A stretch of 20,000 nt of DNA, taken from IMG/VR virus record IMGVR_UViG_3300025927_000002. One strand, 5' to 3'. Under the pieces are notes generated by a model, which saw only the letters and a list, made by a program, of their open reading frames with translations, was not told the DNA's origin and searched no databases. Position 1 is the first letter of the stretch; the number at the start of each line of letters is the position of its first letter. Made by a program: the position numbers and the translations under genes. Source of the stretch: an uncultured virus (IMG/VR IMGVR_UViG_3300025927_000002) (taxonomy: Duplodnaviria > Heunggongvirae > Uroviricota > Caudoviricetes). This document shows, one piece after another, positions 1,317 to 17,416 of this stretch.

Positions 1317-1871
1317 ATGCCGTTTGCAATCGTAGCCGTAAATCACGAGACCTACCGCCAACTCCCATCGCCGCAAGCCCGCTGGCTCCTGATGTGCCTG
1401 GCGCGTTATGCCGATCGCGATGGTCGGTGCTGGCCGAGCATGCGACAGCTCGCCGCGGATTCCCGCATGAGCCTCGCGACCGTGTGCCGTTATCTGAAAT
1501 CGATGGCGGAATTAGGCGTGTTTCAGCGCGCCCGACGCGGCGTCGGCCGATACAGCTACCGGCTCGCGGAAGCCTACGTTCCGCGCCTGCCGGGGCGTGT
1601 TTCATCCGCGCCAACCCGGACGTTTCAAGGCAAGGAACACGATAAGCAGGATCACAGGAGAAGCTATAAAAATCACACCGATTACGATAAGCAGAGCATC
1701 AAGCATGCCGATTCCCCTCCCCCCGAGCCCCCGCTCACCCCTGCTGAGCGCGCCGGGTTTGCGAAGCGGCTGGGCGATTTGGTCGCGTCACTTAGAGCTG
1801 ACGTCACTCCGCCTGAGCGGGCTTGGCGGGCACAACCATGGGCGCGTGCAGGATTGGAGGCAGCAGGCTAA
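1317..1871 (+). CDS. Winged-HTH (HTH_36-like) protein resembling a phage replication initiator N-terminus
   Basis: ARWLLMCLARYADRDGRCWPSMRQLAADSRMSLATVCRYLKSMAELG; GGAG SD before ATG 1317. Confidence 0.75.
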   Translation: MPFAIVAVNHETYRQLPSPQARWLLMCLARYADRDGRCWPSMRQLAADSRMSLATVCRYLKSMAELGVFQRARRGVGRYSYRLAEAYVPRLPGRVSSAPTRTFQGKEHDKQDHRRSYKNHTDYDKQSIKHADSPPPEPPLTPAERAGFAKRLGDLVASLRADVTPPERAWRAQPWARAGLEAAG

Positions 1872-1998
1872 GCCTAGCTAGCTTCCTCTGCAGAATGCGG
1901 AGATCAAGCCGCCTGCCGTTTTCGGCAGCGGTTACGACCGTCTGCGCTTCCTCGGCGACATCACGCAGATAGGCTAGCTCTCGTGCCGTGTCAGTCAT
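1804..1998 (-). CDS. Hypothetical phage protein
   Basis: ATG at 1998 overlaps the end of the upstream ORF (ATGACTGA); 3' end overlaps the convergent HTH gene. Confidence 0.45.
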   Translation of the reverse strand: MTDTARELAYLRDVAEEAQTVVTAAENGRRLDLRILQRKLARLSLLPPILHAPMVVPAKPAQAE

Positions 1999-2245
1999 CG
2001 CGCAGTGACTCGTGGTCACCGCTGGCAATGCAGTCGGCGGCATCCATTACAGCTCCGTACTCAGGGCCGGTCTCACAAAATACGTCTTTCGCCGCCATGT
2101 GCAGCCACGCGACAATTGCGGCGCGCTCCCCGGCGGCGATTTCTACCTGCATGCGCTCCGCCGTCTCGCAGGGGCCATCACCCTCAGCTTTCGGACCATC
2201 GCATGTAATAACATGACAAAATTTCTCGCATACCTTATTCATCAA
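1991..2245 (-). CDS. Hypothetical phage protein
   Basis: 84-aa ORF abutting the upstream stop; ERAAIVAWL segment typical of small phage proteins. Confidence 0.6.
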   Translation of the reverse strand: MMNKVCEKFCHVITCDGPKAEGDGPCETAERMQVEIAAGERAAIVAWLHMAAKDVFCETGPEYGAVMDAADCIASGDHESLRDD

Positions 2246-2464
2246 TCACCTGATCCCCCATATCACCCACAGCACGCCGAGCACGCCGAGCATCGCGCCG
2301 GTGGCAAAGGCAACCACGCGGTCGATGACAAGCGGCCAGTCGCGCCGGAGGCGCGGCATCGGCGCGGCTATTGAGTAACCAGCGACGAGCCGGTCGAGAT
2401 GCAGCTCGGCAAGCTGCTGCACAAGGATTTTTTCGTACCGCGCTTGCGCGCCCTCATCTCGCAT
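2246..2464 (-). CDS. Small membrane protein
   Basis: AGGGAG SD at 2471-2476, start MRDEGAQ; C-terminal hydrophobic helix. The longer ORF-track call runs into the non-coding array. Confidence 0.65.
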   Translation of the reverse strand: MRDEGAQARYEKILVQQLAELHLDRLVAGYSIAAPMPRLRRDWPLVIDRVVAFATGAMLGVLGVLWVIWGIR

Positions 2465-2476
2465 TGCCATCTCCCT

Positions 2477-3020
2477 GCCTACCGCGCCGAGCCGAGCCAA
2501 ACCCCGCCGTGCCAAACCCTGCCATGCCTGCCGGGCCAGTCCCTGCCGCGCCCCGCCAAGCCAAGTCATGCCTGCCAAGCCGGGCCACGCCCCGCCAATC
2601 CAAACCGTGCCACGCCAAGCCGCGCCTGCCGGGCCACGCCCCGCCAATCCAAACCGTGCCCCGCCAAGCCCCGCCTGCCGGGCCATACCTCGCCCATCCG
2701 CGCCACGCCTTGCCTAGCCCGCTAAGCCGGGCCACGCCCCGCCAATCCAAACCGTGCCTCGCCGGGCCTGCCATGCCAACCGCGCCAAGCCCCGTCCCGC
2801 CCAGCCAAGCCAGCTCTGCCACGCCGATCCGAGCCCAGCGCTGCCGTGCCGATCCGAGCCTTTCCGCGCCAGCCATGCCACGCCCTGCCCCGTCCCACCG
2901 TGCCTTGCCGCGCCAGCCTGGCCGCGCCAAGCCCCGCCGCGCCGAGCCGGACCATGCCTGCCCAGCCAAGCCCCGCCTCGCCTTCCCAGCCTCGCCCTGC
3001 CCTGCCGAGCCTGCCGTGTC
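2477..3020 (-). ncRNA. GGY-NN pentamer array of ~11 units, putative VIPR-type guide RNA array
   Basis: Near-strict 5-nt period: RCC-NN on + strand = GGY-NN on - strand (some GGA/GAC/AGC variants), ~97 variable dinucleotides, junctions mostly GGCAGGC/GGCTGGC every 43-59 nt; begins ~10 nt after the stop of 3031-3480. Confidence 0.85.
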
Positions 3021-3030
3021 CAAATGTTCG

Positions 3031-3480
3031 TTATTCCACCGGCTCGACGAGCTGCTCGCTTTTCCGTTCGCTTACTCGGCCGACATCTACTCGGTCGGCT
3101 GCCTCGAAAATGCGGACAAGCTCTCGCATGTACTGATACTTACGTTGCCAAACCCGAAACTCGGAGAGTGCTTGTGAAAGAGCCAACGCGCGCAACTCGG
3201 TATCGGACATCACCTCATCGATAGAGCGATATCCACCCTCGGTATGGCGATCTTGTATAAGCGAAATTGTTGCTCGTTTGCCTTCGTCCGAAACCACATG
3301 CACCGCGATCAAACGACGAACCTGCTGTAGGCGCCACTCTTCGGCCGCGAGGCCGTCGTCCCACTCTAAGCGCTTATGCAACTCGCTCTCAGGGTTCTTG
3401 CGAGCCCATTCAACAACGTTGTGCGGTTTGATAAACCCGGCACTATCAGTCAGATCAAGAAGCTCCCGCTCTACAGTCAT
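3031..3480 (-). CDS. Conserved phage protein, accessory partner of the RAMP-like gene
   Basis: IKPHNVVEWARKNPESELHKRLEWDDGLAAEEWRLQQVRRLI motif; ATGA overlap with the RAMP-like gene stop. Confidence 0.85.
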   Translation of the reverse strand: MTVERELLDLTDSAGFIKPHNVVEWARKNPESELHKRLEWDDGLAAEEWRLQQVRRLIAVHVVSDEGKRATISLIQDRHTEGGYRSIDEVMSDTELRALALSQALSEFRVWQRKYQYMRELVRIFEAADRVDVGRVSERKSEQLVEPVE

Positions 3481-4133
3481 GATGCCAACTCCCATGTACC
3501 AAAGCCGATGCCATTGCTATTTTTACTGAATGGCCGGCCTTCTCCGATACCGACCTGGATGCCGGCACGTGCCAGCAAATTTACGACGTCACCAGCCGAG
3601 AATTGATCACCATCCCAGCGCAGATTCACGACGCACTCCCACTTCGACCATATCGGCCGACAGCGTAGATCGACGACACCAGAATCGTTGCGGACCGGGA
3701 TAATTTTATGATCCTCGTCTGGGGCGCCCTCGATCCGTAAAAGCGGTGTTCCGTCTTCGGCGTCGTACCCATCCGCCTCGACAAAGATACTCATCTTTGC
3801 CCGTGTCATTTGGAACCCGCTCATACGACAGGCATCAATAAGGGCGGCGCGGAACCCAGGGGCCGGGATGCCATACCAGCCATCCGTTGCAACGTGAGCT
3901 GCGGCTTTCCAGTCCGCCTCGAAATCACGGGCGTCACGTTTGGCGCCCTTTTTTGAGCGCGCCCCCATCCGATGCTTTTCTTCGAGGATATCCAGGGCCT
4001 TCTTGGAGAACTTGTGCTGCATATACGGGGCTGTGCCGCGGATACGGATCGCACCTCGATCAAACTTTGGTGCCGCGATCGTAATCGCGGAATCTGACGT
4101 CGCGGCGGTGCTATTCAGAATGTCAAGAGGCAT
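3477..4133 (-). CDS. Stand-alone RAMP/Cas7-like protein (Vipr-like)
   Basis: N-terminal strand IRIRGTAPYMQH, IPAPGFRAALIDAC helix, CRPIWSKWEC strand, C-terminal Gly-rich loop GIQVGIGEGRP...GIGFGTW; GGAGA SD at 4141-4145 (alternative ATG 4136). Confidence 0.85.
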   Translation of the reverse strand: MPLDILNSTAATSDSAITIAAPKFDRGAIRIRGTAPYMQHKFSKKALDILEEKHRMGARSKKGAKRDARDFEADWKAAAHVATDGWYGIPAPGFRAALIDACRMSGFQMTRAKMSIFVEADGYDAEDGTPLLRIEGAPDEDHKIIPVRNDSGVVDLRCRPIWSKWECVVNLRWDGDQFSAGDVVNLLARAGIQVGIGEGRPFSKNSNGIGFGTWELAS

Positions 4134-4164
4134 CATAGATTCTCCGGATGGTTGGTTGAAATAC

Positions 4165-4452
4165 CTACAAGGCACGACTAAAATAATCGCGCCGCTCCTC
4201 CCGCCGTTCAGCGGACGAAGCGCTCGCCTCCAGCTCATCGAGCCTGGCTTCGAGTTCGGCGATGATCCGGCCAACGTGATCGGCGCGGTGCTCCCATGTC
4301 GAGATTGCCGCGCGCACGGTCTCGATGTTGTCGCTGCCGATTTCGTGCGGCATCGGCGGGCTGGGGTGACCAGCATCTTCGGCAATATCGGCAGTGCGCT
4401 CTGCCTCGTGTGAGGCGAGGTAATCCGGCCAAAAGGTATCGGGCACGGTCAT
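4165..4452 (-). CDS. Hypothetical phage protein (coiled coil)
   Basis: 95-aa ORF, ATGA overlap with the upstream gene. Confidence 0.65.
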   Translation of the reverse strand: MTVPDTFWPDYLASHEAERTADIAEDAGHPSPPMPHEIGSDNIETVRAAISTWEHRADHVGRIIAELEARLDELEASASSAERREERRDYFSRAL

Positions 4453-4661
4453 GGCGGATACTCAAACGGAGCCCGCTCATTCCAGGCGATCGCGGCGAGT
4501 TCTTCCGCCCCCTTGCCGTGAACTTCAGGACCCCGGCAATCGCAGTGCGCACACCCAACGTATGCGCTTACGGTTTCCCAGGATTCACCTGCGGTAATAC
4601 TGATCCCGTAGCCTCCTGCTCCGCAGAACGGGCAATGCTTTAATGGCGCGATGTCATTCAT
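4449..4661 (-). CDS. Lar-family restriction alleviation protein
   Basis: LKHCPFCG...VGCAHCDCRGP...AAIAWNER zinc-ribbon signature. Confidence 0.85.
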   Translation of the reverse strand: MNDIAPLKHCPFCGAGGYGISITAGESWETVSAYVGCAHCDCRGPEVHGKGAEELAAIAWNERAPFEYPP

Positions 4662-5094
4662 CGCTGCGTCCTCCTAAGCCCGCCGGCGCAGGGGGGATTG
4701 CGCCGGCGGGTAGGCACGCGCCGCGGCCAGGAGTCGGAGCCCGCGCGCTCTCGGCACTAGCGTCGTGATTCGCCCACCGAGGGTCTGGTGAAGAGGATGG
4801 ATCGCTGGCTTTCGCGAGCGCAGCTATTACCTGCTGCCGCACCGCTCCATTTGTATGGGTGTACGGCTCAGCCGCTTTCAGCGCGGCGACCAAATAATCG
4901 AAAGCATTAACCGCACGGACGATTAGACGGGCATTGGCCTCGGCTTCAGACCCATGCGGAGCTGTCGTCCAGCATGTCGCAATCAGACCACAAGCGACAA
5001 AGGTGCTCTCGTCTATGTGCCATATCCCAGGCTGTGATTGATTGCATACCCACGGGAGCGAGGTTGCGCTCACCGGCTTTTTTGTGGCGCTCAT
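4654..5094 (-). CDS. Conserved phage hypothetical protein
   Basis: LPW...EAEANARLIVRAVNAFDYLVAALKA motif common in temperate phage early genes; overlaps both neighbours. Confidence 0.75.
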   Translation of the reverse strand: MSATKKPVSATSLPWVCNQSQPGIWHIDESTFVACGLIATCWTTAPHGSEAEANARLIVRAVNAFDYLVAALKAAEPYTHTNGAVRQQVIAALAKASDPSSSPDPRWANHDASAESARAPTPGRGACLPAGAIPPAPAGLGGRSDE

Positions 5095-5774
5095 GACTGG
5101 CGACCCCCCATGAACAGATCGACAACCATCTCATTGAACCGCTTTTTGGCGGCGGCCCAGGCGGCGGCCCTGGCGGCGTCGGCGGCGGCCCTGGCGGCGG
5201 CCCTGGCGGCGGCCCTGGCGGCGTCGCCGGCGGCCCAGGCGGCGTCGGCGGCGGCGCAGGCGGCGGCCCAGGCGGCCCAGGCGGCGGCGGCGGTGCCGGC
5301 GGCGGTGCAGGCGGCGGTGCAGGCGGCCCCCGCGGCGGCGCCGGTGGCGGCCCTGGCGGCCTCCCTGGAGGCGGTGCAGGCGGCGGCTCTGAGCGTCTCG
5401 TCGCCCGCTTCGAGGTATTCTTTGACAACGGGCGGCGCCTCCCAAAAGTGGATCACCGACAATGCCTGCTCGCGCGCAAACTTCCGCAGCGTGTTTGTTG
5501 CATTGCGCATATCGACATATTCACGATACCTCGCACCCAGTTTATCATCATCCTCGACAACATCGCCCCAACAGCGGACCCGGTACAAATACTGTCCAGG
5601 GGCGTAGGTCAAAGCATCAAACGGGTCGCGAGATGCGTGGAGCGCGTTGTCGCAAAGGACGATATCGCCACCAACCGAATGCGATTCGCCGACGACAATT
5701 AGGCGACCATCGCCATGCGGCAGGCAATCGGACGCGGAGAACCACCACGCATCAATCTTCTTCGGAGCGCTCAC
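5091..5774 (-). CDS. Phage protein with Ala-rich AAWAA/AARA repeats
   Basis: Globular N-terminus (LCDNALHASRDPFDALTYAPG) followed by low-complexity Ala repeats; ATGA overlap. Confidence 0.8.
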   Translation of the reverse strand: MSAPKKIDAWWFSASDCLPHGDGRLIVVGESHSVGGDIVLCDNALHASRDPFDALTYAPGQYLYRVRCWGDVVEDDDKLGARYREYVDMRNATNTLRKFAREQALSVIHFWEAPPVVKEYLEAGDETLRAAACTASREAARAATGAAAGAACTAACTAAGTAAAAWAAWAAACAAADAAWAAGDAARAAARAAARAAADAARAAAWAAAKKRFNEMVVDLFMGGRQS

Positions 5775-5959: not shown

Positions 5960-6020
5960 GACCGCTCTCCCCGATCAGCCGTCGCCCTCCTGGGCGGATA
6001 GATCCGGTCTGACAAAGAGC

Positions 6021-17017: not shown

Positions 17018-17416
17018 ATGAACCGTTATGCTTTGATCCTGCCGATGTTGCTGATGGTGTCTCCTGCGATGGCGGCTGACCCGCCCCAAGCTCAGCCGCC
17101 GGCTCAGGCTCAGCCGCCGGCTCAGGCTCAGCCGCCGGCTCAGGCTCAGCCGCCGGCTCAGGCTCAGCCGCCGGCTCAGGCTCAGGACGAGCTGGCCAGT
17201 GCGATGAATTCGGCATTGCAAGACAGCGCCAAGGCTGCTGGCAATCTCGGTAATGCGGCCCGGGTTGCGATGCAGCAACGGGCGCAGTTGCAGGCACTGC
17301 TGGTCAGGGCGGTGGAGCTGTGCGCCGAGCGGTGCATCGAGCTGACGGGGCCGATTGCACCGGCTGAGCCAGCGCCTGCTGAGGTGAAGCCGGAAGTCGC
17401 GGCGCCACCGAAATGA
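17018..17416 (+). CDS. Secreted protein with AQPPAQ repeats
   Basis: Signal peptide ending SPAMA-A; GAGGA SD. Confidence 0.75.
   Translation: MNRYALILPMLLMVSPAMAADPPQAQPPAQAQPPAQAQPPAQAQPPAQAQPPAQAQDELASAMNSALQDSAKAAGNLGNAARVAMQQRAQLQALLVRAVELCAERCIELTGPIAPAEPAPAEVKPEVAAPPK
17090..17185 (+). repeat. Perfect 18-bp tandem repeat, 5.3 copies
   Basis: (GCTCAGCCGCCGGCTCAG)5 GCTCAG. Confidence 0.95.

Follow-up and report, generated by a model that had tools for sequence, protein, structure and literature searches.

We analysed a 20,000-nt stretch of DNA from an uncultured virus of the class Caudoviricetes (hereafter the window) and found on its minus strand an array of GGY-NN pentanucleotides that is, in our judgment, very probably the vrRNA guide array of a phage VIPR (Viral Interference Programmable Repeat) system, with each junction-to-junction unit representing one guide. 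As judged by sequence comparison, the locus belongs to the Vipr family, its junctions are conserved, its units are guide-sized, and the targets of its guides end at junctions. The window array is a new member of VIPR, a kind of system known since 2026.

VIPR has been described in three preprints of that year (10.64898/2026.04.26.720920, 10.64898/2026.04.26.720927, 10.64898/2026.10.15.759431). According to these, Vipr is a minimal RAMP protein, with an RRM core, a G-loop and a thumb, that is mostly encoded by phages or proviruses. Each vrRNA comprises 9-16 GGY/NN repeats, with one protomer bound per repeat (10.64898/2026.04.26.720920), and two adjacent protomers of SUSP1 Vipr share one GGY (10.64898/2026.04.26.720927). 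The NN pairs are reported to read dsDNA by skipping a single base for each pair, most often the one at the codon wobble position, and Vipr binding to silence transcription of rival phages and satellites (2026 VIPR preprints). Seven VIPR types are distinguished, and their architectures include “staggered arrays with overlapping vrRNAs”, in which neighbouring vrRNAs share 1 nt, so that one starts where the previous one ends (10.64898/2026.04.26.720920, legend of fig. S18). The main text of the same preprint gives sRNA-seq confirmation for hammerhead and single-vrRNA architectures only, implying that staggered arrays are so far, by that text, without it.

Results

One-Base Junctions Divide the Array

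Between positions 2440 and 3040, the minus strand holds 88 GGC triplets spaced by 5 nt or multiples thereof, with 14 exceptions of 4 or 9 nt (GGC at 3011, 2982, 2958, 2914, 2870, 2811, 2777, 2768, 2719, 2675, 2626, 2572, 2528 and 2479). All 14 phase breaks are shifts of -1 and none is +1. A sequence-only reading of the window had proposed a 5-nt period broken at 12 junctions, all of which were recovered among these one-base-short breaks; the two extra slips that it had noted, at 2775-2781 and 2980-2986, are both present and both -1 like the others. Its count of seven exact minus-strand GGCAGGC words also agreed with ours within the array (3015, 2962, 2772, 2679, 2630, 2576 and 2532), the whole 20-kb window having 11 such words on the minus strand and three on the plus strand. 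The canonical word is found at 7 of the 14 junctions. The remainder read GGCT (two), GGAA, GGTT, GGTA, AGCT and AGCG, and these degenerate junctions may mean that some units of the window have decayed or fused.

By a register-aware parse, the units measure 29, 24, 44, 44, 59, 34, 9, 49, 44, 49, 54, 44 and 49 nt, with zero non-repeat sequence between them (Table 1). Nine of the 13 are full-size (8-11 NN plus the junction pentamer) and four are short (1-6 NN), with too few repeats for a guide by the published range of 9-16. The range given earlier, 43-59 nt with 7-11 NN, holds once the 29- and 24-nt units and the 34- and 9-nt units are merged, but not for the units as parsed.

Positional entropy modulo 5 over the 97 pentamers was 0.08, 0.20 and 0.84 bits at positions 1-3, as against 1.87 and 1.88 bits at positions 4 and 5, bearing out the claim that the triplets are near-invariant and the NN variable. 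The triplets comprise 76 GGC, 9 GGT and 12 degenerate forms, and 15 of the 16 NN dinucleotides are in use. Pairs of GGC at a spacing of 5 nt numbered 55, compared with a mean of 2.2 (maximum 8) in 1000 shuffles. The tandem periods reported by TRF in the array are all either 5-nt based or 44/49-nt blocks, among them a 49-nt higher-order repeat at 2579-2763 with 78% matches; the units U9, U11 and U12 have six consecutive NN in common. The array starts 16 nt past the accessory gene, on the same strand as vipr, and ends approximately 9 nt short of the ATG of the next gene, with which it is probably co-transcribed. Across positions 1500-5000 Rfam returned no family and no hammerhead, and no sigma-70-like promoter or terminator-like site bounding the array was found on the minus strand.

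Table 1. Positions of the array, its units and the neighbouring genes in the window.
Feature	Position	Strand	Description
Small downstream gene	2246..2470	minus	74 aa, hydrophobic C-terminus; no PHROG or Pfam family match
Probable vrRNA array, staggered VIPR type	2479..3015	minus	97 GGY-NN pentamers, 14 one-base-short junctions
U14	2480-2528	minus	Full-size, 9 NN; no exact viral match (array parse, pattern scan)
U13	2529-2572	minus	Full-size, 8 NN; no target found (array parse)
U12	2573..2626	minus	10 NN plus junction word GGCA; exact natural targets (3 viral matches)
U11	2627..2675	minus	9 NN; third paralogue, best target match 16/18 in G002
U10	2676..2719	minus	8 NN; no target found (array parse, G002 scan)
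U9	2720..2768	minus	9 NN; paralogue of U11/U12, exact natural targets (2 exact matches)
U7 + U8	2769..2811	minus	Short: 34 nt, 6 NN and 9 nt, 1 NN; site of the extra slip at 2775-2781
U6	2812-2870	minus	Full-size, 11 NN; no exact viral match (array parse, pattern scan)
U5	2871-2914	minus	Full-size, 8 NN; no target found (array parse)
U4	2915-2958	minus	Full-size, 8 NN; no target found (array parse)
U2 + U3	2959..3011	minus	Short: 29 nt, 5 NN and 24 nt, 4 NN; site of the extra slip at 2980-2986
Accessory gene	3031..3495	minus	154 aa, phrog_15946 (E=5.4e-20)
vipr	3477..4136	minus	219 aa RAMP, phrog_4652 (E=1.9e-13)

Could the array encode a protein? On the minus strand an ORF of 189 aa (2454-3023) would give a G-x-A-x-x pentapeptide repeat, one forward frame is open through the whole array, and a GenBank record lists the homologous stretch of phage Donkeykong as a hypothetical protein (gp48). 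We give this reading almost no credence. In a GGC-NN repeat, TAG is the only possible stop, so that open frames come free; six of 11 homologous arrays (L014, L016, L002, L119, L123 and L160) have stops in all three forward frames. Moreover, 49 nt, the length of the repeat block, is not divisible by 3, the 189-aa ORF has no PHROG or Pfam match, and in phage Brocalys the same stretch is unannotated.

The window corresponds to the early region of a phage or prophage with 59% GC, and by Pfam and PHROGs its genes include those for a D5-type primase-helicase, an exonuclease of RecE/Cas4-like type, a VRR-NUC nuclease and a Lar-like protein. Near-identical DNA occurs in at least 22 rhizosphere metagenome runs, with no RNA run among the public runs listed. 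The short-read assemblies of four of these (X17, X18, X21 and X22) all break within the array, at approximately 2526-2724, and the contigs of these DNA runs displayed no unit-level variants over the 2000-3600 region. Assembly breaks at the 49-nt block repeats, and array length in such contigs is untrustworthy without long reads. A further genome, G001, is the same phage from window position 6017 on and holds no independent copy of the array.

Three other features of the window may be mentioned here. Within a minus-strand ORF (5091-5774) that matches DUF7666 weakly, a GGCGGC-rich tandem repeat with periods of 12, 21 and 33 nt (approximately 73% matches) occupies 5148-5387 and probably represents a repeat in low-complexity coding sequence. 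Positions 17090-17185, inside overlapping ORFs, consist of 5.3 copies of an 18-nt unit repeated perfectly in tandem (100% matches). Finally, a minus-strand ORF of 216 aa at 186-836 has a C-terminal PEP-CTERM sorting motif (Pfam E=2.2e-5), and may be either host flank or a phage-borne cell-surface gene.

The Neighbouring Genes Encode a Vipr Protein and an Accessory Protein

The vipr ORF is open up to 4385, with the start at 4136 being the most likely by family alignment. A profile built from 24 phrog_4652-type proteins matched a solved chain, PDB 36pp_D (“SUSP1 Vipr protein”), with E=1e-13, profile positions 24-211 aligning with chain residues 2-188 (187 residues). Pfam RAMPs matched seven of the 24 members of this family. 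An AlphaFold model of the window Vipr (pLDDT 86.2) gave 32 Foldseek matches in the PDB at E<=0.001, the best at 5.8e-5 and with modest TM-scores of 0.33-0.47; all the matches displayed were entries for CRISPR type III, III-E and VII effector complexes (Csm, Cmr, Cas7-11). The fold predicted for the window Vipr is thus of the Cas7/Csm3-like kind.

In SUSP1 Vipr, the residues that contact GGY are H17, R138, D177, W178 and R179 (10.64898/2026.04.26.720927). The window Vipr keeps four of these five, namely the H, the thumb R (R160), an acidic residue (E199 for D) and an R (R201), while W178 is replaced by G200. This mapping was made via the HMM profile alignment and the family alignment and involves no direct pairwise alignment.

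The accessory gene is most likely a vap. In its model (pLDDT 88.5), the protein has a small N-terminal domain and, after it, a helix of 50 residues. Foldseek returned zero matches for it at E<=0.001, and the best VIA-align hit (Z 5.5, 64 residues, rmsd 3.3) provides at most a weak winged-helix-like hint. Neither of the two protein models matched a solved nuclease.

Several other functions had been considered for the repeats, i.e., a sponge for a TRAP-like or CsrA-like protein, a Rho loading site, a G-quadruplex or R-loop origin and a Chi-like decoy; all were dropped once the RAMP/VIPR homology appeared.

Array, vipr and Accessory Gene Occur Together in Other Phages

A blastn search with 8 kb of the window against 50,697 phage records gave matches only via the array, in 27 Mycobacterium and two Gordonia records. 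Phage Donkeykong has the array followed by gp49 (phrog_4652, 1.7e-58) and gp50 (phrog_15946, 2.3e-89), which indicates that phages of unrelated hosts carry these three parts as a set. With vipr- and vap-like genes beside them, the arrays in these 29 Mycobacterium (Cheoctovirus) and Gordonia phage records look like VIPR loci that have gone unrecognised in well-studied phages; the one in Donkeykong (L001:2972-3358) is the stretch annotated as gp48 that carries no annotation in Brocalys.

We then assembled 83 loci, comprising 80 viral loci found via a phrog_15946 homologue, two Mycobacterium phage loci and the window. A phrog_4652 homologue was present on the strand of the accessory gene in 80 of these, and two of the three misses were cut contigs. 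Period-5 segments were found in 74 of the 83 loci, always beside the vipr/accessory genes, with none at the control lags of 4 and 7. Two loci of intermediate GC content (L014 and L016) carry GGT-NN arrays, with the punctuation CGGCAGGT.

Two further observations concern these relatives. In one locus (L028:5440-6100) and approximately 50 similar ones (about 41% GC, contigs of 50-90 kb), short period-5 tracts lie between vap-like and vipr-like genes; the gene-strand consensus is N-A-C-A-N, with GGCAG in register and inverted repeats flanking, so that they represent either another repeat consensus or the opposite strand. In addition, the array ends in L014:4380-4416, L016:3985-4020 and L008:3320-3345 share words (GGCAGGCAC GGYTAT) that directly precede the ribosome-binding site of the next gene. 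They may form a conserved element at the 3' end of such arrays; the window array has a different end.

The Junction Word, Its Direction and Its Spacing Are Conserved

It had been suggested that junction motifs be compared in homologous arrays. The GGY steps in 20 viral arrays comprised 833 of 5 nt, 114 of 4 nt and 18 of 6 nt. Fourteen of the 20 were segmented by phase, giving 82 shifts, of which 74 were -1, seven -2 and one +2, with zero +1; internal units in these segmented arrays had a median of 11 pentamers (n=70), inside the published range of 9-16 repeats.

Vipr alignment yielded a second, independent set, of 58 bacterial genome loci, with the best matches from Aestuariivirga and Bradyrhizobium (56-59% identity). 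GGY arrays were present in 40 of the 58, all on the vipr strand. Four-base steps outnumbered six-base steps by 214 to 16, and GGCAGG[CT] stood at 203 of the 214; GGC was kept at the junction even in GGT-NN arrays. Pairs of GGCAGG[CT] within 120 nt of each other numbered 229 on the vipr strand and one on the other strand. Their spacing was 4 mod 5 in 169 of the 229, with modes at 49 (33 pairs), 54 (32), 44 (20), 39 (17), 64 (16) and 59 (13) nt; the three highest modes equal about 10 repeats, in agreement with the published guide size of 9-16. Spacings as short as 4-19 nt, resembling those of the short units U7 and U8 in the window, recurred in 18 of the 229. Homologous arrays therefore do not lack periodic junctions. 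Given that the word, the -1 direction and the spacing recur in both bacterial and viral arrays, the junctions constitute a conserved punctuation that has a direction, a specific sequence and guide-sized intervals.

These data bear on the notion that the junctions are inert, functionless scars of the tandem duplication of a 44-54-nt block with one deletion. Such a history is in keeping with the 49-nt higher-order repeat (2579-2763, TRF) and with the six consecutive NN common to U9, U11 and U12. We consider it very unlikely, however, as the same word and the same -1 direction are found in arrays with unrelated NN, in bins of many phyla (Pseudomonadota to Actinomycetota) and in phages, and as the junction word occupies 203 of 214 steps, with 229 close pairs on the vipr strand versus one on the other. 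Furthermore, the NN at which the paralogous units differ are precisely those that follow the variants of a single target motif, as described below.

Guides Match Probable Packaging Genes of Other Phages up to the Junctions

Units were turned into one-base-skip patterns, and five of them (U6, U9, U11, U12 and U14) were scanned for exact matches in a viral collection. U12 (20 specified bases) matched three contigs and U9 (18) matched two, while U11 and U14 (18 bases each) and U6 (22) had no exact match in that collection. All five exact targets are on the antisense strand of an ORF, each skipped base falls on a codon wobble position, and all five encode KGTP(N/K)(K/N)V(T/S), on contigs of 35-61% GC. 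Both of the U9 matches are in frame on KGTPNKVSG. One target gene is a T7-type small terminase (phrog_445 1.1e-38; Pfam DNA_Packaging), and the target ORF in G002, a complete 60% GC provirus, is directly upstream of and overlaps the large-terminase gene. From these assignments, the target genes are probably small-terminase genes of other phages.

At the G002 site, U12 matched 20/20, U11 16/18 and U9 15/18 of the specified bases. Of 200 order-shuffled controls, none attained the score of U12, one that of U11 and five that of U9. Seven of the 10 units scanned against G002 scored no better than shuffled controls. By these sequence matches, at least three guides (U9, U11 and U12) appear to be aimed at one conserved motif, GG-R-x-K-G-T-P-N-K-V, at the 5' end of the target genes. 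The three paralogues (2573-2768; 49-nt block duplication) differ mainly in the NN for the variable residues that follow KGTPNKV, and the array looks as though it diversifies its guides so as to cover different alleles of a single rival gene.

Target matches stop at junctions. Beyond either junction, the NN of the neighbouring unit matched at 0-3 of 8 (five sites, three registers), compared with approximately 2 of 8 at random. Because a match was counted as exact only when it extended over the full unit, these matches do not on their own establish that the outermost NN are required. Together with the VIPR membership of the locus and the junctioned homologues, these end points support the original proposal that the junctions are processing or assembly boundaries playing the part of CRISPR repeats.

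In the 30.8 kb available of the phage's own sequence, no self-target above 81% was found, which counts in favour of the guide reading. Other target searches were negative. When 216 junction-delimited guides were scanned with one-base skips against 132 non-redundant loci, five matches resulted, compared with 11 and 16 in controls. In metagenome contigs U11 had 23 exact matches, none with the terminase motif and mostly in unrelated peptides, several in frames with stops; these look like chance level for 18 specified bases. A resemblance of U11 to the G-loop codons of rival vipr genes (16/18 in L061 and 14-16/18 in 13 of its 20 relatives) was rejected as probable chance, given that its paralogues U12 and U9 have exact matches on the opposite sense in terminase-like genes, where U11 too reaches 16/18.

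Discussion

How might such an array work? We infer transcription of the array, cleavage of its RNA, filament loading and silencing from the published systems and from the features reported above. The array would be transcribed from the minus strand, either along with vipr and the accessory gene or immediately after them, and each GGY-NN repeat would be bound by one Vipr protomer, as published for SUSP1. Protomers would flip out the GGY bases and display the NN pairs, which would bind dsDNA with one skipped base per pair and so silence transcription of the rival phage. Guides of approximately 8-11 NN each would follow head to tail, without tail sequence in between. Each would end in GGCA, with the next G already being the first G of the following guide's GGC, so that in GGCA/GGC the last pentamer can be taken as GGCAG, its final G being shared with the next GGC. 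The missing base would break the 5-nt register such that the Vipr filament could not continue into the next guide, thereby making each unit a separate guide. The transcript would probably also be cut at or near the junction.

The last of these steps is where an alternative has to be weighed, i.e., that the junctions are assembly boundaries only, with one long transcript carrying several Vipr filaments and no RNA cut. We regard this as possible, though not the likelier course. No nuclease or ribozyme is evident, with Rfam blank in 1500-5000 and neither protein model matching a solved nuclease; adjacent protomers share one GGY, such that a 4-nt step alone could end a filament (10.64898/2026.04.26.720927); and the sRNA-seq confirmation in the preprint's text concerns architectures other than the staggered one (10.64898/2026.04.26.720920). 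On the other hand, the legend of fig. S18 in the latter preprint speaks of “individual processed vrRNAs”. In addition, the near-invariant A, and a GGC that persists even in GGT arrays, look like a sequence signal and go beyond what a spacing defect would need, as any single N would suffice to break the register.

Tentatively, we would propose that GGCAGGY may be the whole “repeat”, a sequence-specific stop-and-cut signal that would be read by Vipr or by the accessory protein and would replace the pseudoknot tail of the SUSP1 type. Should this speculative proposal be true, an ancestral RAMP system would already join Cas6-like guide maturation and Cas7-like guide display, and the array would be the densest guide array known, having zero non-guide bases between guides.

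VIPR is known only from the 2026 preprints, by whose text the tail-less staggered array is the one architecture still without RNA-sequencing confirmation. The present locus and its relatives offer a handle on it, i.e., the conserved GGCAGGY, the distribution of unit sizes and named guide-target pairs (U12 and U9 versus the small-terminase motif), and with these pairs and the junction word the staggered architecture becomes directly testable. Our data also point to a class of target, the packaging genes of rival phages, and to VIPR arrays that bear a mistaken hypothetical-protein annotation in deposited genomes of Mycobacterium phages.

Several known systems invite comparison. TRAP binds 11 triplets with 2-3 nt spacers as a ring on an mRNA leader for attenuation, and resembles the array in having a conserved triplet with a variable dinucleotide and one protein subunit per repeat; its spacers, however, carry no information. 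The likeness to the Cas7 proteins of Class 1 CRISPR systems lies in a RAMP protein that polymerises on guide RNA with a fixed step and flipped-out bases, and in many guides held in one array with a recurring signal as delimiter. The step is 5 nt here compared with 6 in CRISPR Cas7, with three of five bases flipped out here and the target read with gaps, and the “repeat” is a single missing base, or one-base overlap, in GGCAGGY rather than a 21-48-nt handle. TRF found no CRISPR direct repeats (approximately 21-48 bp between unique spacers) in the array, and Pfam and PHROGs revealed neither cas1/cas2 nor any other cas family in 30 ORFs, save for the Cas4-like/RecE-like exonuclease of the replication module. 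Unlike CRISPR arrays, the window system is phage-carried.

Among the VIPR systems described, type II of SUSP1 and P. fulva has the same protein family, repeat code and one protomer per repeat. SUSP1 vrRNAs are, however, separate transcripts of approximately 100 nt with an invariable 3' tail of approximately 40 nt, a pseudoknot of which caps the filament (10.64898/2026.04.26.720927); in the window no tail lies between guides, just the GGCAGGY word, and the tail that marks type II in that description is absent. The window Vipr is itself distant from the Vipr proteins studied (profile E of 1e-13, W178 of the G-loop replaced by G), and half of the window's junctions are degenerate. The closest likeness is to staggered VIPR, with which the locus has in common a Vipr RAMP, an accessory gene and GGY/NN pentanucleotide repeats on one strand, guides of approximately 9-12 repeats with adjacent guides overlapping by one base, and targets in rival phage genes read with a one-base skip at the wobble position (10.64898/2026.04.26.720920). 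As far as that preprint's description of the staggered architecture goes, none of its defining features is contradicted by the window.
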